DNA of 13,170 nucleotides from a virus. The notes below the pieces were generated by a model. That model was not told the DNA's origin and did no database searches. It worked only from the letters and a program-made list of their open reading frames with translations. The position numbers and the translations under genes are program-made. Every line of letters begins with the position of its first letter. Within the stretch, counting starts at the first letter, position 1. The stretch is from the UHGV virus genome UHGV-0063608; one strand, 5' to 3'. Below are positions 216 to 8,814 of this stretch, piece by piece.

Positions 216-2111
216 ATGAGCAAAGTAAAAATCGGTGAATTAATAAACTCACTTGTTAGCGATGTTGAGTCAATAGATAACTCTGACCGTCCTCAAGGGG
301 AAAAAACAAAAAAAATAAAAGCTGTTGCATTAAAATTTAAAAATGCATTATTTAATGACAAGCGAAAGTTTAGGGGGAAAGGATTAGAAAAAAGAATTAC
401 AGCCAACACATTCAATGCCTATATGAGCAGGGCCAGAAAACGGTTTGATGATAAACTTCATCATAGCTTTGAAAAAAATATACATCGCCTATCTGAAAAG
501 TATCCTTTATATAATGAGGAGCTATTATCATGGCTTTCTCTACCTGCTGCCGATATTCGCCAGAGAATGTCAGCTTTACAGGCAAAATTAAAATTAATTC
601 TCCCTTTATCAGAAGATTTATCTAATATCAGAATTGGTGATAACAAAAGTCATAATAAGTTATTAAAATTATCAAACAAATATAAAGAGTGGCAATTCGC
701 CATTTCTGATTTAACTAGCGATAACTGGAAAGATAAGCGCGATTATTTATATAAATTACTACAGCAAGGATCTGCCTTACTTGAGGAGTTGAATCAGCTA
801 AAAGTTAACCATGAGATTCTCTATCATCTTCAACTAAGCCCTGCCGAACGCGCATCTATCCAGCAACGATGGGCGGACGTTCTGCACAATAAGAAACGTA
901 ACGTGGTGGTCATTGATTACCCTAAATATATGCAAGCTATTTACGATATTATAAATAGCCCTGCTACATTAAATAATCTAAACACTCGTTCAGGTATGGC
1001 TCCTTTGGCATTTGCACTTGCTGCATTGTCAGGAAGACGAATGATTGAGATTATGTATCAAGGTACATTCACTGTTTCTGGTAAGTATACCGTTGATTTT
1101 TTAGGCCAAGCTAAAAAAAGAACTTCTGATGATATAACCAGAAAAATATATACATTATGCGAAGCGAAAACATTTGTTTATTTAATAAATGTACTTCGCT
1201 CATGCCCAGCAGCATCTGATTTTGATGATGTCGTTAAAGGTTATGGAGATAACGACACACGCTCTGAAAACGGACGTATTAATGCCATATTAGCAAAGGC
1301 TTTTAACCCGTGGGTTAAATCATTTTTCAAAGATGACCGCCGTGTTTATAAAGATAGTCGTGCTATTTATGCCCGTATTGCGTATGAAATGTTTTTCCGC
1401 GTAGATCCTCGTTGGAAAAATGTAGATGAGGATGTTTTCTTTATGGAAATTTTAGGCCATGACGATGAAAACACTCAATTACACTATAAGCAATTCAAGC
1501 TGGCCAACTTCTCAAAGACATGGAGGCCAAATACTGGAAACGAAAATACCAGGCTGGAAGCATTGCAGCAGCTTGATGACGAAATGCCTGGATTCGCCAG
1601 AGGAGATGCCGGGGTTCGTCTGCATAACACAGTTAAGCAGCTGGTAGAGCAGGACCCCTCTATAAAAATCACGAACAGCACTCTAAGAGCATTCAAATTT
1701 AGCCCAACAATGATTAGTCGATACCTGGAATTTGCTGCTGATGCTCTGGGGCAATTTGTTGGCGAAAATGGACAATGGCAGCTGAAAATTGATACTCCAG
1801 AAATCGTTATGCCTGACGAAGAAGAGCTGGAAGCAATACCTGAACAGGCGGATGAATTATCAGAGGATGACGATCTGGATGACGACGAAATTGAGATAGA
1901 GGAAGAGATAGAGGAAGAGAGCATAGAAGAACAGCAACCGCCCGCGCCTTCTTCACCTGTATCTAAGCCGGTATTTAAGCCAGTGAGAAATATTGGTGAT
2001 GGCTCATACGTTGTCGAGTTTCATTATAATGGCCAGAATTATGCGTGGTCAGGCAGTGCAAACAGCCCCATGTCAGCAATGCAGTTAGCATGGCTGACAT
2101 ATTTCGGCTAA
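216..2111 (+). CDS. telN: Protelomerase (telomere resolvase), tyrosine-recombinase-like
   Basis: 631-aa ORF, the same length as N15 TelN. The N-terminus MSKVKIGELIN... and blocks such as RSGMAPLAFALAA..SGRRMIEIM and NTQLHYKQFKL (active-site Tyr region) match my memory of TelN/TelK. Strong RBS AGGAGAGG upstream of the ATG, acidic C-proximal linker, and the gene sits next to the telRL palindrome. Confidence 0.93.
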   Translation: MSKVKIGELINSLVSDVESIDNSDRPQGEKTKKIKAVALKFKNALFNDKRKFRGKGLEKRITANTFNAYMSRARKRFDDKLHHSFEKNIHRLSEKYPLYNEELLSWLSLPAADIRQRMSALQAKLKLILPLSEDLSNIRIGDNKSHNKLLKLSNKYKEWQFAISDLTSDNWKDKRDYLYKLLQQGSALLEELNQLKVNHEILYHLQLSPAERASIQQRWADVLHNKKRNVVVIDYPKYMQAIYDIINSPATLNNLNTRSGMAPLAFALAALSGRRMIEIMYQGTFTVSGKYTVDFLGQAKKRTSDDITRKIYTLCEAKTFVYLINVLRSCPAASDFDDVVKGYGDNDTRSENGRINAILAKAFNPWVKSFFKDDRRVYKDSRAIYARIAYEMFFRVDPRWKNVDEDVFFMEILGHDDENTQLHYKQFKLANFSKTWRPNTGNENTRLEALQQLDDEMPGFARGDAGVRLHNTVKQLVEQDPSIKITNSTLRAFKFSPTMISRYLEFAADALGQFVGENGQWQLKIDTPEIVMPDEEELEAIPEQADELSEDDDLDDDEIEIEEEIEEESIEEQQPPAPSSPVSKPVFKPVRNIGDGSYVVEFHYNGQNYAWSGSANSPMSAMQLAWLTYFG

Positions 2112-2122
2112 AGCATACGTTA

Positions 2123-2147
2123 AAGGCACCGAATTAATCGGTGCCTT
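2123..2147. terminator. Stem-loop between convergent telN and the antirepressor operon; possible bidirectional terminator
   Basis: 10-bp perfect stem aaggcaccga/tcggtgcctt with a 5-nt loop, 12 nt after the telN stop. The flanking U-tracts are only moderate on either strand. Confidence 0.45.
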
Positions 2148-2283
2148 GTTATGTGGCCTACCTCGCCCACCCCCTGCAAAGGGCAGAAGTAACGGAGGAA
2201 ACGCGGCTGCAACCACAGACATCACCGCCCCGACTGCGAGGCTTCCCCTCACTAAGAAGAGCATAAATTCGGGCTGGCCAACC

Positions 2284-3066
2284 CTATTTATTAGTGATTT
2301 CAGCTGGCTTTAACTGCGCGGATAACTGCTCAAGTTTTTGAACTGCCAGTTCAAAATGCGCGGGTAACGCCTTTTCCAGATCAGAGTTAATATCGGTGAT
2401 GGGCAAATCACCACACGACATACTCCGCCTACCCCCACGAACAACATCACGCAACAACTCACGTTCATACGTGCGCATGTTCCCCAATGCCGACTCAGCA
2501 GCCGTCAAAATCCGGCGCAGTTCTGCCGTAATTGCTGGCAAATCATCAACCGTTATGGGGTTCGGGGATGGATTACGACACGCCCGACGCAAAGCCAACC
2601 ATACACCACTAATCCAGGCATTTCGGTATTGAAAACTTTGTGCAATATCGTTAATCAGCCCTCGCAGATACTCCTTCTGCCTCCAGTTCAACGGCTCCGC
2701 AGCTCGCATTGGCTCAGGCTCGACGTAAACGTACTCTCCATTCTTGCGAATAGAGGGCAAGACTTCGTTCGTTACCCATTTGCGAAACCGCCAAGCTGTT
2801 GTGCCTTGCTTCACCGCGTCACGGCAGCGGAGGATCAGGGTGTATAGACCTGACTCTGAAATAATATTTAGCTTTTGCTCTCCGCCAGGGGTGTAACTTA
2901 AAGTTACACCCTTTTCATCCTCATCCAGAGACATTAGCGCCTTCCGGGAGTTAACGAGTCTTAAAGCATCACATACATCCTTAGCCACAAACCACGGCTC
3001 ACCGTTAATCATCACTACACGAACCTGATGCTCTTCCTGAAACGAAAATACAGCTAACGCGCTCAT
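2284..3066 (-). CDS. Bro-N domain protein, putative antirepressor
   Basis: 260 aa; the N-terminus FSFQEEHQVRVVMINGEPWFVAKDVCDAL is a textbook Bro-N/AntA-type motif. Perfect RBS AAGGAGG before the ATG, and the start overlaps the upstream gene's stop (ATGA). It is the last gene of an Icd-like/small protein/antirepressor operon, as in the P1 immI and N15 immA loci. Confidence 0.7.
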   Translation of the reverse strand: MSALAVFSFQEEHQVRVVMINGEPWFVAKDVCDALRLVNSRKALMSLDEDEKGVTLSYTPGGEQKLNIISESGLYTLILRCRDAVKQGTTAWRFRKWVTNEVLPSIRKNGEYVYVEPEPMRAAEPLNWRQKEYLRGLINDIAQSFQYRNAWISGVWLALRRACRNPSPNPITVDDLPAITAELRRILTAAESALGNMRTYERELLRDVVRGGRRSMSCGDLPITDINSDLEKALPAHFELAVQKLEQLSAQLKPAEITNK

Positions 3067-3296
3067 TTAGCCTCCTTATTGTGCTGTAATTGCGACGAGA
3101 GAGATGCTGAATACCCCTGTGCTTCGTGTGTTAGCTCACACGCAATTTGAAGGAGCTTCCCGGCTTCTGATAGATAAATCGACGCCTCACAGCTGGATAC
3201 TGTCCGATGGGCTGATGACACGAGCGCATAGACCTGAGCAAGACGTTCATCCAACGACTCCAGCAGGCCAACAGTGTTCATTTTTACCTGATTCAT
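3063..3296 (-). CDS. Hypothetical 77-aa protein, middle gene of the anti-immunity operon
   Basis: ORF with RBS GAGGTGG upstream, translationally coupled at both ends by ATGA overlaps. No recognisable motif. Confidence 0.55.
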   Translation of the reverse strand: MNQVKMNTVGLLESLDERLAQVYALVSSAHRTVSSCEASIYLSEAGKLLQIACELTHEAQGYSASLSSQLQHNKEAK

Positions 3297-3457
3297 GCAG
3301 CCACCTCGCGCACCGGAATACGGGCAGACAATACCAGGACAAACCGGCTGGCGAACTGGCGACGAGCTTCCCGTTCAGATGACGCGATGGTGGAAAGATG
3401 ATGGATATGTGACTTTTTGTCTGTGCGAACGATTGCCGCAAATTTGAATTTGAACAT
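3293..3457 (-). CDS. Small Icd-like protein (putative host cell-division inhibitor), 54 aa
   Basis: Not in the supplied ORF track because it is under 60 aa. Hand translation gives MFKFKFAAIVRTDKKSHIHHLSTIASSEREARRQFASRFVLVLSARIPVREVAA. GGAG lies 8 nt upstream of the ATG and the stop overlaps the next start (ATGA). The pattern F.F.A...R.D ... SE.EAR ... F.L.L.ARIPV matches what I recall of Icd-like proteins that sit upstream of ant genes. Confidence 0.5.
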   Translation of the reverse strand: MFKFKFAAIVRTDKKSHIHHLSTIASSEREARRQFASRFVLVLSARIPVREVAA

Positions 3458-3495
3458 GGTATGCACTCCGTTTAATTGGTCGTGCTACCACCAGA

Positions 3496-3505
3496 GTTCC
3501 TACGC
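3496..3505 (-). promoter_or_regulatory. Antisense-target repeat, copy proximal to the Icd-like start (GCGTAGGAAC on the transcribed strand)
   Basis: Plus-strand gttcctacgc; identical 10-mer at 3663-3672. Complementary to ggtaggaa at 3531-3538 inside the candidate RNA. Confidence 0.4.
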
Positions 3506-3511
3506 TCTATA

Positions 3512-3590
3512 TGGCGGTAGCCCAGACGGGGGTAGGAATACCGGTAAACGAAGAAACCGGCCAGCTAAAAGCTGCCCCATCTGAGCCACC
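3512..3590 (-). ncRNA. Candidate small regulatory RNA (P1 c4 / P4 CI / N15 CA-like), tRNA-like with a 3' GCCA
   Basis: Minus-strand RNA 5'-GGUGGCUCAGAUGGGGCAGCUUUUAGCUGGCCGG...CCUACCCCCGUCUGGGCUACCGCCA-3'. The first 7 nt pair with GGCUACC (two G-U wobbles) and are followed by G-CCA, like an acceptor stem with discriminator and CCA. There are internal hairpins (CAGC/GCUG and CCGGU/ACCGG), and the UUCCUACCCCCG segment is complementary to two GCGUAGGAAC copies in the same leader. Confidence 0.35.
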
Positions 3591-3620
3591 ATAAATTTGG
3601 TGTACGCAGATTTTACACAC

Positions 3621-3642
3621 AAAAAAACACGCTGGCGCGTGT
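3621..3642 (-). terminator. Intrinsic-terminator-like hairpin inside the anti-immunity leader
   Basis: On the minus strand, a 6-bp stem ACACGC/GCGUGU with a 4-nt loop is followed by UUUUUU and GUGUGU. It lies between the distal antisense-target repeat and the 5' end of the candidate RNA. Confidence 0.4.
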
Positions 3643-3662
3643 TGTGCGCTTCATTTACTCGG

Positions 3663-3672
3663 GTTCCTACGC
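3663..3672 (-). promoter_or_regulatory. Antisense-target repeat, distal copy (GCGTAGGAAC on the transcribed strand)
   Basis: Identical 10-mer to 3496-3505. With its flank (CCGGGCGUAGGAA) it can pair 11 of 12 positions with UUCCUACCCCCG of the candidate RNA. Confidence 0.4.
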
Positions 3673-3752
3673 CCGGCTACGGGATTTACCGTAGCGGAGT
3701 AAACTTTACCGTCAAAACGACGCGCACGTCAATAATTTGCAAAGACATTTTA

Positions 3753-3772
3753 CCCCGTGACCAGTCACGGGG
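3753..3772. repeat. GC-rich perfect inverted repeat ccccgtga-ccag-tcacgggg after the accessory cassette
   Basis: 8-bp stem, 4-nt loop. The T-run on the plus strand is 7 nt away and the minus-strand U-tract is weak, so this is either a weak terminator for the upstream leftward genes or a protein-binding site. Confidence 0.3.
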
Positions 3773-3833
3773 ACAGGTGTTTTTATAGTTTGCTTGAACG
3801 AGTGTTCAGAAGTTGATCGTTAATCAAAGGCCA

Positions 3834-4121
3834 TTACTGATTAAGAGATTGGAAATACCTAACTAACTTACCGGCATCATCACATTTTTCTTTATCTTCT
3901 TCCTTAACATAGCCGCGACAAAAGGCTGAATAAAATTTTGCATTTTCAGAAGCAAAAGCAGCCGTCGAAAGGAGCAGTTCTTTGCATGATTCTTTTGATG
4001 CAGCATCGGGATTATTTTTACATGCAAGCTCTGCTGATGAGTCAATAACAGAAATGCTATCTTCCTGGGCATAAACCGCAGCAGAAAAGGCAAAACATAA
4101 AACAAAAATAAAACTCTTCAC
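3834..4121 (-). CDS. Small secreted or periplasmic cysteine-containing protein, unknown function
   Basis: GTG start with strong RBS AGGAG 5 nt upstream. N-terminus MKSFIFVLCFAFSAAVYA-QE is a typical Sec signal peptide with an AxA cleavage site, and the mature part has 4 Cys. The region is markedly AT-rich compared with repA, which is moron-like. Confidence 0.6.
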   Translation of the reverse strand: MKSFIFVLCFAFSAAVYAQEDSISVIDSSAELACKNNPDAASKESCKELLLSTAAFASENAKFYSAFCRGYVKEEDKEKCDDAGKLVRYFQSLNQ

Positions 4122-4148
4122 TTTATCTCCTGTAACAGTTATCGCAAC

Positions 4149-4544
4149 TCAATCAACTTTTTTAGCATCAGCCATACGCTTCAACCAGTAATCAACAATC
4201 GGTTGCTCATCCACAGAATGTTTACCAGGTATAACTCGCCAGCTGTCTGCCGAAAGGCTACCGTATCTATGCGGGAAAAGGCATTTCTTTAGCTCCTGCC
4301 ATGTGCTAGGAAAACCGTCTGCCAAAGTGCCAATTAACAGAAAAGGGACAAAAATCAGGGCTACAAACCATCGGGCAAGAAAGTGCTCAACAATAACCTC
4401 TTCACCGTTATAGTAATACGCATACGTATCCCATATACGAATTTTCCTTACCCTAAAAATGGCCTTATGCTGAGAACGACTTAGCTTGATGCGAATGTAT
4501 CCCTTATTCAAGAGGGATTGGTGTTTGTATGATTGAACTGCCAT
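4149..4544 (-). CDS. Single-pass membrane protein, unknown function
   Basis: 131 aa; RBS GAGAGGGG upstream of the ATG; basic N-terminal region, one hydrophobic helix WFVALIFVPFLLIGTLA, then a C-terminal soluble domain. Co-oriented and tightly spaced with its neighbours. Confidence 0.55.
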   Translation of the reverse strand: MAVQSYKHQSLLNKGYIRIKLSRSQHKAIFRVRKIRIWDTYAYYYNGEEVIVEHFLARWFVALIFVPFLLIGTLADGFPSTWQELKKCLFPHRYGSLSADSWRVIPGKHSVDEQPIVDYWLKRMADAKKVD

Positions 4545-4546
4545 TT

Positions 4547-4813
4547 TTAACCCCTCTCAGCGTTATTCTCTGATAACGGCTTTACCTTATATTTCCTCAA
4601 TAGGATACGGGCTTCATCTGTCCGGTCTTCCATGTTTTTATCGCTGGCAATACAGCAATAAACAGCATCATCATCGCCAAAGCCATTCATCCTAATGATG
4701 ATGAACGGCAGTTCTCGACCAGTTTTGTAATCGCTATAGCCAGTATCCATTCTGCTGACGTTAACAACATACGGATCATACCCTTCAATCAAAACGAGGC
4801 ACTCTTGCATCAT
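4547..4813 (-). CDS. Hypothetical small protein immediately downstream of repA
   Basis: The track ORF (4547-4843) begins at a TTG that overlaps the repA stop; the first ATG (MMQECLVLIEGYDPYVVNV...) is at 4813. No recognised motif, and the start is uncertain. Confidence 0.45.
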   Translation of the reverse strand: MMQECLVLIEGYDPYVVNVSRMDTGYSDYKTGRELPFIIIRMNGFGDDDAVYCCIASDKNMEDRTDEARILLRKYKVKPLSENNAERG

Positions 4814-4830
4814 TCCCACGCTTCTACCCT

Positions 4831-7800
4831 CTAAACTACACAAAACTCATCGCTGGCATGTCGTGGGCCTATAAAAGCCTTCAGCAACTTAATCTCATGA
4901 CCGGACAGCAAATCCATAAACTCAGTCATATAAAGGGCTGCAAACGTGTATGCGATGCTGTCAACTGACCACCCCCTGATAGATTCCAGTTCAGCTGATG
5001 GCAGAGCACTCATCGCCCAAGACTCAGGAACAGCCACCGGCAATACGGCCAAAGCCTGTGATATAGCTGAACGAGGGGGATCCTGTTCCACCGTGTTTGT
5101 GGATCGCGTTTCACCATTCATATATATATTTAATGACAAATCGCGATCCACTTCGGTCGTTGATTTTTCCGCCTTGCGAGCTTTCAACGTCATACCGTCC
5201 TCCTGACGTTGCGCAAGAATATCAAGCATAAATGCTACAGAATCAGGCTCAACAAAACGCAATGTCGGGCGCTTATCTCCATCTCTGCCGCGACGTTTTC
5301 CTGTTTTTAGGCCGAGAGAGTCGCAGATGTTTTTAAACAGTGCTTCCGGCACTTTAGGCTTCCCTTTTGGTGTCATAAAACCACCAATGCGCAGAACGTT
5401 ATTCAACAGATCACGGCGTTCTGCTGTCATGAGATTATCTCGAGCGAACTTAAGGCGTTCCTGCGTCGCTTCGCCGGTCATAGTTTCAGGGTCGATACCG
5501 CAGTCGATAAAGTACTGCCGGAGAGTTGCTGATTTAAGCGCATAGAATCCGCGCATGCCGACCTCAACAGCTGGGGTGGCTTTTACCTTGTAGTCGATTA
5601 TTCCCGGAAATTTCGCTTTGAATACATCATCAGCCTGCTCGCGTGTCATCGCGGTCACCACAAAATATTGCCACTGTCCGGTCTGGCGGTATGCGTATGT
5701 AAAATTGATAGCCGCTTCTTCACGGTCATAACGACGGGCTGTGACTTCATCAAGCAGCATCGTTTCATAACGGCGAATTTTGTCTCGAGCACCATCGAAA
5801 TAGAATTTCAGCGTGCCTTCTTCAACCGGTAGTTTCAGTTCGTTCTCAATATCCCAGCGGACAAGTTTTGCCTGTTCTTCAAGCGTTAGCGCACGTTTTT
5901 TTAGTAGTTCTTCACGCTCTGATTCTTCTGGTGTCTCTGTATTGAGGTGCAGATCCAGCGTCTGTTCCCACACAATATCCCGCGCTTCTTTGCGCAGCTC
6001 TTTACCAAAATCATTTGCGGCATAATCAGTAGCTAATGGCGATACCTTATAACCGTCGCTGTGCATGATGCAGATCATGTTGCTGGCGTAGTCGTTACGC
6101 GCAGACGCTTCAATAGCGGCAGCTTTAATTTTCATCCTGGTAAAGTCGGTATTGGCCACCCCCATTGATATACGGTCGCCATCGAAAACGACATCCGTCA
6201 GTTCACCGTTCATGCCTGCGGTAGCAAGTAATGCCTGGGCGAATGCACGTTCTATTTTTTGCGGATCAGTCTCGCGTTTTGCACGAGCTTTATCAAAGCC
6301 GATAATAAATTCTTTTGCTGTACGGTCGCGGCGTAGCATTTGCACTGCGTCGCTGGGCACAACTTCACCGCAGAACATGCCGAAATGACGGTCAAAATGT
6401 TTTTTCTCAAATGACACCCCGGAGGAAATCGACGGGCTGTAGATCAGTCCATCGTATTTCATCACCATTACTTTTGGCTGGTTGGTAAAGGCATCGACTT
6501 CTTCATCCTGTTTGCTTTTCTGGTTTACGCACAGAAATTTCTTACCAGGAAAATGCATTCTCAGGGTGGCTGTCACATCTTCTGCAAAGGTGGAGCTGTC
6601 GGTGGCCAACATGATTTTTTCGCCATCCGATACAGCTTTCACCACCTCGGTCATGATGCGATCTTTTTCTGTATAAAAAACCCGGATTGGCTCACCTGTT
6701 TCGCGGTTGCGAACATCAACAGGTAATTCAATTACGTGGATCTGCAGCCATGCCGGTAAACCTAGTTCTTCACGGCGTTTCATAGCCAGTTCAGCCAGGT
6801 CAACCAGCAGATCGTTCGCATCAGCATCCACCATTATTGGGTGTTGTTCCGTTCTGGCCAGCGCGTCGATTAACGTATTGAATACAGCCACCGGGTTTTC
6901 CATAGCCCGACCGGAAAGAACGGCACGTAGCCCTTGCGTGGCCTCGTCAAAGCCAAAATAGTCGTGCTGGCGCATCAACGGTTGCCAGCAGTTTTTAACA
7001 ATCGAGTTTATGCAGATGGTCAGTTTACTGGCGTATGGAGCCATTTCCTGATAGCCAGGGTCCTGATAGTGCAGGATATCGGCTTTTACACCTTTTCCTT
7101 CTGTCATCATTTCCCACAGGCCACCAATAAGGGAAACACGGTGAGCAACAGAGATACCACGTTCTGAGCTATGCATTAAAGGTCGTAACAATCCAGTAGA
7201 TTTGCCGGAACCCATACCAGCACGAACGATGACTATCCCCTGTAGTGATTGCACATACTTCAGGACGTCATCGGTCATTACCGAAGTTTCAAAACGCTTA
7301 TAGGTGATATGTTGAGGACGTTTATTGGGATCAGTTATGCGTTCGCTGAATGAGCGCGGAGCCTGGGCAATACGGCACTTTTTATTCAGGCGACGGGCAA
7401 TGTGGTCTTTTACCGTAGCGCGATAGATATTTTCCAGCCCCATTTCACGCAGAACGATGCAGAACATGTTAAATAAGTCTGACGGACTGTTAGGAACCGG
7501 ACAGGTTAGCATGCCAATATCCACCGCTCTCAGCAGCTCTTTGGCAAAAGTACGACGGTTATCCCGCTTAATTGTCTTCAGGCGGTTGAGCGTCAGAGAT
7601 AGCAAATCAGTGCCGGTTTTCAGGCGGTTTGCAGTTGCAAACAGTTGACGTGCTGTTTCACGAAGTCCACGCAGTTTGTGCAGGTCGTTGAAGTCACTGC
7701 ACTCCATTTGCGGATCGTCTTCAAAAGTTGGATAGACGCAGCGGACATCGTTGAATTTCGATAAGATTTCATAGCCAGTCCGCAGGCCGGCATTCCCTTT

Positions 7801-8814
7801 TCCTTCTGTGGCAGATTTCCGGTCATTATCCAGTGCGCAGGTGATTTTTGCCGCCGGGTACATGTTTACCAGTTGTTCCACAACATGAACCATGTTGTTA
7901 GCGGATACAGCGACAACCACAGCGTCAAAGCGTTTATCTTTTTTCGTGGCAAGCCAGATGGATGCACCAGTAGCAAAACCTTCTGTAACAGCGATGTTTT
8001 GCGCCCCTTTCAGCTCACCGATAACAAAGCAGGCACCGACGAAATCGCCGCTGGTTACTGCGCTGGTCTGGTATTTCCCACCTTGTTTGTCGATTCGCTG
8101 CCAACCCACAATACGACCATCATAACGACCGTCCAGGTGAGCCAGAGGGATAGCCATATATGTGGTTGGCCCCCGGCTCCATTTCGCACTGTCGTGACTG
8201 GTCACGCGACGCACATCACATGAACTAAAAACGTCACGAATACCTTTTTTAATCGCATATGGCCATGAGCCGTCTTCAGCCTGAGCATGTTCCCACGCGC
8301 TGTGGAATGCCAGCCATCCCAGCAAACGTTCATGGTCCATTTGGTTGTTTTTCAGGTCATTAATTCGTTTTTGTTCTTCACGGCGACGACGTGCTTCGGC
8401 CTGACGTTCTATTCTTTCCCGTTCTTCTTCCGGTTGTGCGACCACGGTCGCATTATTCCGTTGTTGCTCACGGCGATATTCAGAAAACAGGAAGGAGAAA
8501 CCGCTCCATGAGCCAGCATCGCTGCCTTTATGGACGAAGTTAATGAACGGGTAATCAATCCCTTTGCTGTGTTCCAGCCTGGAGTAAATTTCTACGCGTC
8601 CTTTCAGGCTCTTTTCGAGAGCTTCTGGAGATGTTTTATTGTATGAAGAGTAACGCTCAACCCCCCCGCGAGGGTTGAGTTGGATGTTGTCGGAACAGGC
8701 AGGCCAGTTGATACCAGCCATCTGTGCCAGCTCGGTTAGTTCATCCCGTGCTGCTTCAATTAGCGAGAACGGATCGCTGCCAAAGCGATCCGCATAGAAA
8801 TCGTTTAATGTCAT
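4831..8814 (-). CDS. repA: Multifunctional replication protein (primase plus helicase), N15 RepA / P4 alpha-like
   Basis: 1327 aa (N15 RepA is about 1324 aa). TOPRIM-like primase motifs (VTEGFATGAS, ALDNDRKS) in the N-terminal third and a Walker A P-loop (VRAGMGSGKST) in the central region. It sits directly upstream of cB, as in N15-like phages. Confidence 0.9.
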   Translation of the reverse strand: MTLNDFYADRFGSDPFSLIEAARDELTELAQMAGINWPACSDNIQLNPRGGVERYSSYNKTSPEALEKSLKGRVEIYSRLEHSKGIDYPFINFVHKGSDAGSWSGFSFLFSEYRREQQRNNATVVAQPEEERERIERQAEARRRREEQKRINDLKNNQMDHERLLGWLAFHSAWEHAQAEDGSWPYAIKKGIRDVFSSCDVRRVTSHDSAKWSRGPTTYMAIPLAHLDGRYDGRIVGWQRIDKQGGKYQTSAVTSGDFVGACFVIGELKGAQNIAVTEGFATGASIWLATKKDKRFDAVVVAVSANNMVHVVEQLVNMYPAAKITCALDNDRKSATEGKGNAGLRTGYEILSKFNDVRCVYPTFEDDPQMECSDFNDLHKLRGLRETARQLFATANRLKTGTDLLSLTLNRLKTIKRDNRRTFAKELLRAVDIGMLTCPVPNSPSDLFNMFCIVLREMGLENIYRATVKDHIARRLNKKCRIAQAPRSFSERITDPNKRPQHITYKRFETSVMTDDVLKYVQSLQGIVIVRAGMGSGKSTGLLRPLMHSSERGISVAHRVSLIGGLWEMMTEGKGVKADILHYQDPGYQEMAPYASKLTICINSIVKNCWQPLMRQHDYFGFDEATQGLRAVLSGRAMENPVAVFNTLIDALARTEQHPIMVDADANDLLVDLAELAMKRREELGLPAWLQIHVIELPVDVRNRETGEPIRVFYTEKDRIMTEVVKAVSDGEKIMLATDSSTFAEDVTATLRMHFPGKKFLCVNQKSKQDEEVDAFTNQPKVMVMKYDGLIYSPSISSGVSFEKKHFDRHFGMFCGEVVPSDAVQMLRRDRTAKEFIIGFDKARAKRETDPQKIERAFAQALLATAGMNGELTDVVFDGDRISMGVANTDFTRMKIKAAAIEASARNDYASNMICIMHSDGYKVSPLATDYAANDFGKELRKEARDIVWEQTLDLHLNTETPEESEREELLKKRALTLEEQAKLVRWDIENELKLPVEEGTLKFYFDGARDKIRRYETMLLDEVTARRYDREEAAINFTYAYRQTGQWQYFVVTAMTREQADDVFKAKFPGIIDYKVKATPAVEVGMRGFYALKSATLRQYFIDCGIDPETMTGEATQERLKFARDNLMTAERRDLLNNVLRIGGFMTPKGKPKVPEALFKNICDSLGLKTGKRRGRDGDKRPTLRFVEPDSVAFMLDILAQRQEDGMTLKARKAEKSTTEVDRDLSLNIYMNGETRSTNTVEQDPPRSAISQALAVLPVAVPESWAMSALPSAELESIRGWSVDSIAYTFAALYMTEFMDLLSGHEIKLLKAFIGPRHASDEFCVV
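5101..5149. other. Origin-like element inside the repA 3' region: 8-bp inverted repeat flanking an AT-rich (TA)n spacer
   Basis: ggatcgcg at 5101-5108 and cgcgatcc at 5142-5149 flank a 33-bp spacer containing catatatatattta, with two GATC sites. In N15 the replication origin is reported to lie within the 3' part of repA. Confidence 0.35.

Follow-up and report, generated by a model that had tools for sequence, protein, structure and literature searches.

A mobile single-gene moron family, encoding a predicted periplasmic four-cysteine protein, in the repA-distal slot of an N15-like telomere phage-plasmid

The virus genome UHGV-0063608, analyzed here as one stretch of 13,170 nucleotides (the window), represents part of an N15-like telomere phage-plasmid and carries three small genes, designated g1, g2 and g3, between the replication gene repA and the anti-immunity leader. 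All three are real open reading frames (ORFs) on the minus strand downstream of repA, co-oriented and tightly packed as the original prediction had described them: 11 nt separate the repA stop from the GTG start of g1, 2 nt separate g1 from g2, and 27 nt separate g2 from g3. At the end of the repA operon farthest from its promoter, the three genes form single-gene modules that are exchanged separately. Of these, g3 alone occupies the true cargo slot; it is a mobile single-gene moron with the look of a horizontal acquisition. The cargo region of these elements has already been described; g3 represents an uncharacterized moron family and g2 a semi-conserved membrane-protein family. We hold the anatomy and the mobility of the modules with high confidence. 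The features that carry the argument are the following.

4831-8814, minus strand: repA, a replication protein of 1327 amino acids and the upstream gene of the operon
4547-4819, minus strand: g1, 88-90 amino acids
4149-4544, minus strand: g2, 131 amino acids, with one transmembrane segment
4320-4382, minus strand: region coding for the transmembrane segment of g2 (residues ~55-75, FLARWFVALIFVPFLLIGTLA)
3834-4121, minus strand: g3, a precursor of 95 amino acids with a GTG start, a signal peptide and four mature cysteines
4068-4121, minus strand: signal peptide of g3 (residues 1-18, MKSFIFVLCFAFSAAVYA), with cleavage before QED, between VYA and QE
3819-4144, no strand assigned: exchangeable g3 module, bounded by mosaic breakpoints, with unrelated genes here in YDC107_1

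Alignment of the window to its relatives with blastn places breakpoints at ~3818, 4134-4145, 4559 and 4894, all at gene borders. YDC107_1 aligns over 2000-3818 and 4145-6000 and not between; pS159-3 matches the window over 2971-4559, with divergence from there to 4894. Correspondingly, the interval from repA to the anti-immunity leader differs among close relatives, with these contents.

N15: gp36, gp35, gp34, gp33
PhiR46_1 and pS159-3: a gene of 63 amino acids, a gp35-like gene, g2, g3
YDC107_1: gp36, g2, a 74-amino-acid gene, a 71-amino-acid gene
Escherichia fergusonii plasmid: a gp35-like gene, g2, a 270-amino-acid gene
Escherichia albertii plasmid: the 74-amino-acid gene only, and a 22-codon remnant of g1
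Klebsiella pneumoniae MSB1_8A: a gp35-like gene, a g2 homologue, a pesticin-like muramidase, a 141-amino-acid protein with a signal peptide
NAR688: ORFs of 377 and 181 amino acids at the position of g2 and g3

The combination of g1, g2 and g3 is absent from INPHARED, PLSDB and the complete RefSeq Escherichia coli genomes (at least 80% coverage) and is present in draft assemblies. The proposal that the three form a cassette does not survive this comparison: a breakpoint falls at each gene border, and g3 has relatives without g2. Across the 226 TelN-encoding plasmids of PLSDB, g1 was found in 21, g2 in 47 and g3 in 19, in line with the accessory nature that had been proposed; none of the three has an assigned role, as core genes of all N15-like phages might.

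The g3 family is tiny, with 10 matches in 5.8 billion proteins. An exhaustive HMMER search retrieved three more relatives at 33-43% identity and a profile search added others; the relatives span 30-44% identity and keep the signal peptide and the four cysteines. Public assemblies contain the exact protein in 1112 indexed blocks; the carriers listed belong to E. coli and Shigella and come from humans, poultry and other animals. Outside the telomere elements the gene travels alone: three relatives stand immediately upstream of the tape-measure gene in prophages with siphovirus-type tail genes, including widespread Citrobacter prophages, and two lie among tail-tip genes. A further relative occupies the same repA-icd slot of a different N15-like element, after ~750 bp of non-coding DNA in which promoter-like sites are no commoner than in shuffled sequences (locus L015). 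No homologue of g2 was found in the loci of the distant g3 relatives. In all eight contexts the G+C content of the g3 gene (0.33-0.41) contrasts with that of its flanks (0.46-0.56), and the relative in locus L011 is followed by a clear intrinsic terminator of its own. At the position studied here, g3 is absent from YDC107_1, the E. fergusonii plasmid and the E. albertii plasmid.

It is because of these solitary, AT-rich relatives in other prophages, together with the patchy presence, that we regard g3 as a moron. In the sense of Juhala and Hendrix (PMC3594210), patchy presence and deviating base composition are both found for g3; as for a promoter and terminator of its own, the gene in the window has 27 nt upstream of it, no promoter called and a weak hairpin downstream. 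Within the window, its G+C content of 0.372 (0.25 at third codon positions) falls at the 8th percentile among 288-bp windows. The segment 3834-4121 had been described as clearly more AT-rich than repA or telN; this is so for repA (0.488), and only marginally so for telN (0.389), which is itself AT-rich. Both g1 (0.432) and g2 (0.427) are mildly low in G+C. The suggestion of acquired cargo applies to g3; it does not apply to g1, a homologue of N15 gp36, or clearly to g2, a semi-conserved operon gene.

The GTG start of g3 is preceded by AGGAG 6 nt upstream. The precursor has five cysteines and the mature protein four; a hydrophobic N-terminus and a cleavage site of the A-x-A type, kept across the relatives, indicate export at the level of sequence, and both the signal-peptide protein with four cysteines and the single-pass membrane protein (g2) of the original prediction are supported. 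A lipoprotein was considered and rejected, Cys9 having no lipobox and not being conserved. The four mature cysteines are present in every intact relative, down to 30% identity, in the family pattern C-x(9-11)-C-x21-C-x(11-13)-C. AlphaFold2 run on an alignment of 13 family sequences predicted a three-helix bundle (predicted local distance difference test, pLDDT, 88; predicted template modeling score 0.69) with helices at 4-15, 22-53 and 56-75, and the cysteine positions flank both helix-helix turns. From this layout we infer disulfides C16-C28 and C50-C62 (mature numbering), each of which would form a C-x11-C staple across a helix-helix turn. With three sequences the model reached a pLDDT of 67, and Foldseek of that model against the PDB gave no match; no specific structural match was found for the three-helix bundle. 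Several of the database homologues (P0003, P0005, P0007, P0008 and P0010) switch midway to an alternative-frame ORF of 80 amino acids at 3863-4105. These frame-switched members are probably indel errors in plasmid assemblies and not real variants, the errors possibly lying at the A-rich runs of the gene.

The second gene, g2, has a single hydrophobic segment (maximum Kyte-Doolittle value, KD19, 2.15), with 10 K/R against 4 D/E in the part N-terminal to it and 9 against 7 in the C-terminal part; the more basic N-terminal part suggests an N-in topology. A basic N-terminal domain precedes the transmembrane segment, which is closely followed by a conserved G-x-P-x-T motif and then by ~50 amino acids of C-terminal tail. 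Down to 24% identity, nine residues are invariant (R23, H26, R33, Y43, W59, L63, G77, P79 and T81), and the transmembrane segment is kept in all aligned relatives, with a tail that varies or is absent. Close relatives are few; the 47 PLSDB plasmids with a member of the family, as found by tblastn, belong to Escherichia (25), Klebsiella (16), Enterobacter (4), Citrobacter (1) and Shigella (1).

Where telomere elements of Escherichia, Klebsiella and Yersinia were inspected, a g2 homologue directly follows repA or gp35. ORF32 of the Yersinia telomere phage P840 is such a homologue (41% identity) and the last gene after repA, and the Klebsiella plasmids inspected have a gp35-like (DUF5448) gene, then the g2 homologue, then variable cargo. 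Beyond these elements, more distant homologues are encoded by Proteus phage Isfahan, in which the gene overlaps the stop of the DNA polymerase gene, by Salmonella phage CF-SP1, in which it lies among unannotated genes, and by other phages. N15 has no detectable homologue of g2, including among gp33, gp34 and gp35; gp33, considered as a remote homologue, was rejected on comparison. Because of its wide spread in telomere elements, directly after repA or gp35, g2 is a semi-conserved member of the repA operon and is not clearly acquired cargo; it may have an early-expressed exclusion function at the membrane or a replication-linked role. The version in CF-SP1 (genus Swiduovirus; locus L021, 4007-4381) looks much closer to that of Klebsiella telomere plasmids (L028 and L029, 4498-4878) than to that of E. 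coli, a likeness that suggests gene exchange between unrelated phage types.

For g1, three starts come into consideration, ATG at 4813 (88 amino acids), GTG at 4819 (90 amino acids) and TTG at 4843 (98 amino acids), all with the end at 4547; of these the GTG gives the best alignment to the N15 gp36 start and is preceded by GAGGGT. The product, acidic and non-membrane, is 77% identical to N15 gp36 over 78 amino acids, with its gene in the same position directly after repA, and 97% identical to the 'putative gp36' of YDC107_1. It is a homologue of N15 gp36 and of phiKO2 Gp34. By tblastn it was found after repA in N15, phiKO2, KpLi5 and MStein-2023a, besides its occurrence in YDC107_1, and 19 of the 21 PLSDB plasmids carrying it are from Klebsiella. 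Given the homology to gp36 and this patchy distribution, g1 is a gene of the N15 group and not new cargo. In E. albertii pEA26_5 (locus L007), a remnant of 22 codons at 2900-2965 adjoins repA and is 100% identical to the start of g1; g1 is otherwise missing there, as are both other genes, and past the antB-like gene there is a transposase gene. The remnant looks like a deletion scar in the slot.

Searches of Pfam, NCBIfam, PADLOC and PDB sequences with the three proteins returned nothing significant; for the PADLOC-DB defense models there was no match at E <= 1, and Pfam gave no bacteriocin or muramidase match. Only PHROG families were hit, phrog_18790 by g1 and phrog_15458 and phrog_28641 by g2, and all those matched by the three proteins are labeled 'unknown function'; the earlier statement that no known family could be assigned therefore stands.

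The remainder of the window that bears on the slot is laid out as follows.

1-48, no strand assigned: telRL palindrome of 48 bp, a complete palindrome AGCACATAATATCCCATTATACGCGCGTATAATGGGATATTAGGTGCT, ~170 bp upstream of telN
216-2111, plus strand: telN
2284-3066, minus strand: BRO-type antirepressor gene
3063-3296, minus strand: gene of 77 amino acids
3293-3466, minus strand: icd-like gene
3626-3732, minus strand: anti-immunity (immA) leader, with a promoter-like site at 3732-3703 and an intrinsic terminator at 3643-3626
3753-3772, no strand assigned: GC-rich palindrome CCCCGTGACCAGTCACGGGG, a perfect inverted repeat between the g3 stop and the anti-immunity promoter

The palindrome at 1-48 looks like an intact telRL telomere-resolution site, in which case the window would begin at the telomere site of the element. 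At the other end of the operon, homologues of repA are annotated as 'plasmid replication protein, CyRepA1 family', 'origin of replication binding family protein' or 'primase'. The anti-immunity leader marks the downstream border of the cargo slot; its region is 80% identical to an N15 block annotated 'cA: secondary immunity repressor' and 'putative rho-indep. transcription terminator'. The palindrome at 3753-3772 lies within a block conserved with N15, and its minus-strand RNA forms an 8-bp hairpin (minimum free energy of the region -23.4 kcal/mol, z = -2.5). It was not called by the terminator scan, and its U tract is poor; it is a candidate for a weak terminator at the end of the operon, possibly one acting in both directions, or for a protein-binding site. 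In a consensus scan of 3000-5200, no promoter-like or terminator-like site was called on the minus strand from repA to the end of g3; because no internal signals are predicted and the genes are tightly coupled, we infer co-transcription with repA.

Two assembly features were seen in related elements. The draft contigs L025 and L027 run (~10000-16288) through telN into an inverted copy (telN, BRO, icd, g3, g2 and so on), which looks like assembly read-through of the hairpin telomere. In GCA_949281555.1 (L024, a 2.7 Mb contig; region 12496-16288), an N15-like element is joined just past telN to thymidine-kinase, H-NS-like and nucleotidyltransferase-family genes, which are probably chromosomal; the junction is either a scaffolding artifact or an integrated copy.

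Several known systems occupy comparable positions. In NAR688, the telocin-immunity pair TelA-ImmA lies between RepA and the protelomerase, and both proteins were detected in lysogens (Byers et al., PMC12042878). The telocin cassettes (TelA-ImmA, TelB-E) share the position of g3, in that they come after repA and its small genes and before the anti-immunity leader, icd, the BRO antirepressor gene and telN; like g3, they vary between close relatives and encode envelope-located proteins. They differ in that the window has no toxin gene, the largest ORF in 3834-4830 being of 131 amino acids, and neither g2 nor g3 shows homology to the telocin ORFs of NAR688 or to the pesticin-like pair of MSB1_8A. 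A survey of E. coli N15-like elements reported no telocins, resistance genes or complete defense systems (bioRxiv 10.1101/2025.09.12.675607). On the K. pneumoniae telomere plasmid NZ_CP031806.1 (L029, 5250-6806), a muramidase resembling the C-terminus of pesticin is accompanied by a divergently oriented 141-amino-acid protein with a signal peptide; exactly at the place of g3, these two are probably a telocin-immunity pair of the TelB type.

In the tail region, the parallel is gene 15 of HK97, which lies upstream of the tape-measure gene and encodes an inner-membrane superinfection-exclusion protein regarded as the prototype moron (PMC3594210). Three of the g3 relatives share its position just upstream of the tape-measure gene, and both gp15 and the g3 relatives are small, patchily distributed envelope proteins whose genes are richer in AT than the flanking DNA. 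However, gp15 belongs to the YebO family of membrane proteins, and g3 is predicted to be soluble and secreted and has four cysteines; HK97 was not returned by tblastn of g2 and g3 against the phage collection. The uncharacterized genes 33-36 of N15, between repA and the anti-immunity locus, hold the same operon position as g1 to g3, and beyond the correspondence of g1 to gp36, no homologue of g3 was detectable among gp33, gp34 and gp35.

The explanation we favor is that g3 is an envelope-acting lysogenic-conversion protein. The three genes would be co-transcribed with repA and made in the plasmid-prophage state, with g1 acting in the cytoplasm; such expression in the lysogen seems on balance likely, because of the co-orientation with repA and the proteomics of the same slot in NAR688. 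The g3 precursor would be exported by Sec and cut after VYA, and the mature protein of 77 amino acids would fold in the periplasm as a three-helix bundle with two disulfides. There it would block something that crosses the periplasm, candidate targets being the tail tip, the tape measure or the lysozyme of a superinfecting phage, and g2 may act separately at the inner membrane. We give this explanation as a whole a probability of roughly 0.45. As for the function of g3, a factor for entry exclusion or protection is the single most likely option, if a tentative one, argued from the localization of the protein, the mobility of the gene, the identity of the slot and analogy; next come a fitness role unrelated to phages and orphan immunity against a toxin that acts in the periplasm. 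More speculatively, and with a low probability, the family could constitute a new class of periplasmic exclusion protein, a disulfide-stapled three-helix binder intercepting the tape measure or the tail-tip complex of incoming siphophages in transit through the periplasm, which would explain the repeated capture of g3 next to tape-measure and tail-tip genes and its presence in the telomere cargo slot, otherwise a site of envelope-acting toxin-immunity pairs.

A number of points weigh against the favored explanation. None of the three proteins has homology to known exclusion, defense or immunity proteins. Lacking a promoter and terminator of its own in the window, g3 is not a textbook self-contained moron, and its co-transcription with repA is deduced only from consensus scans. 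The disulfide pairing is read from the secondary-structure layout and not from coordinates, and three-helix bundles are generic, so that the fold of g3 is uninformative on its target. Finally, the g2 family adjoins replication genes, also outside the telomere phages, which fits a replication or early role equally.

A rival proposal is that g2, perhaps with g1, serves the replication or early development of the element itself, for instance by tethering the RepA replisome to the membrane or regulating it there, and is not a conversion gene; we judge this unlikely. It draws on the position of the homologues directly after repA or gp35 in the telomere elements inspected and on the overlap with the polymerase gene in Isfahan, and it would suit a protein whose conserved part is the N-terminal domain, predicted to be cytoplasmic and containing the invariant R23, H26 and R33, with a periplasmic tail that varies or is missing. 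Yet N15 has no detectable g2 homologue, 179 of the 226 TelN-positive plasmids lack g2 at E <= 1e-3, and repA and telN are sufficient for linear plasmid replication in N15 mini-replicons and vectors. A reading of g3, and possibly g2, as host-fitness conversion factors acting in envelope stress, serum or bile resistance or colonization, as in the case of lambda Bor and Lom, is rather unlikely. The abundance of the exact g3 protein in assemblies and its carriers in E. coli and Shigella of humans, poultry and other animals are consistent with it, and tail-operon morons do include non-exclusion factors (PMC3594210); against this, there is no similarity to known virulence or stress proteins, and a 77-amino-acid three-helix bundle in which no enzyme or metal motif was detected fits a binder better than an enzyme. 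We consider it quite improbable that g3 is an orphan immunity protein directed at a bacteriocin, a telocin or a type VI secretion peptidoglycan hydrolase that acts in the periplasm, left as a stand-alone relic or cheater of the toxin-immunity cassettes of the slot. The slot does hold a muramidase with its 141-amino-acid partner in MSB1_8A and TelA-ImmA in NAR688, and g3 is predicted to be periplasmic and has no toxin-sized gene beside it. However, tblastn of g3 finds no relative in Klebsiella plasmids, the distant relatives lie in tail-gene clusters with no toxin nearby, and no homologues of telocins were found in the E. coli N15-like elements surveyed (bioRxiv 10.1101/2025.09.12.675607). The pesticin-linked MSB1_8A protein was rejected as a homologue of g3, the similarity being confined to the signal peptide.

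That the three genes are one co-acquired exclusion or abortive-infection system, its membrane and secreted parts acting together, is very improbable, even though the genes are co-oriented and tightly packed, g1 and g2 are translationally coupled and g2 and g3 are adjacent in 19 PLSDB plasmids. T4 exclusion offers a precedent, using the membrane protein Imm and the periplasmic Spackle. The exchange at every gene border argues against a single system, as do the occurrence of the full combination in draft assemblies only among the collections searched, the association of g2 with other neighbors, the g3 relatives without g2, and the lack of g1 in most plasmids having g2 and g3. Still more doubtful is true homology of g3 to T4 Spackle (gp61.3, Sp), by which g3 would inhibit the gp5 tail lysozyme of incoming T4-like phages in the periplasm. 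This identification appears in GenBank PV340565.1 (PhiR46_1; L001, 3086-3373), where a 96% identical homologue of g3 is annotated 'Spackle exclusion protein'; no published paper on PhiR46_1 was found. Spackle is, as g3 is predicted to be, a small, helical, cysteine-containing periplasmic phage protein of ~95 amino acids (95 for g3 vs 97) with a cleavable Sec signal peptide, and the signal peptides of Spackle and g3 are alike (MKSFIFVLCFAFSA vs MKKFIFATIFALAS). The two nevertheless differ in their carriers, a virulent phage as against temperate elements, and in having two and four cysteines in the mature protein, respectively. BLASTP of g3 against T4 Sp gave E = 30, and hhalign of the 13-member g3 family against T4 Sp aligned only 14 residues of the signal peptide (probability 32%). 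Neither phmmer nor the hidden Markov model of the g3 family found a Spackle chain among PDB sequences, and no fold match to Spackle appeared, the Foldseek search against the PDB having used the weak model with a pLDDT of 67. On the BLASTP, hhalign and PDB results and the cysteine pattern, g3 was rejected as a Spackle homologue; the label in PV340565.1 is probably an over-annotation, best explained by the resemblance in signal peptide and size.

N15-like phage-plasmids are found in E. coli of human, poultry and other animal origin. In Klebsiella, the corresponding slot holds bacteriocin weapons expressed in lysogens, and what fills this slot in the E. coli elements had not previously been described. 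Regardless of exclusion, the analysis corrects a misleading public 'Spackle' annotation and establishes how the repA-distal region is built up from modules. Should g3 or g2 exclude phages or toxins, it would be a new small envelope factor among the prophage-encoded protections, with a bearing on phage-therapy host range.

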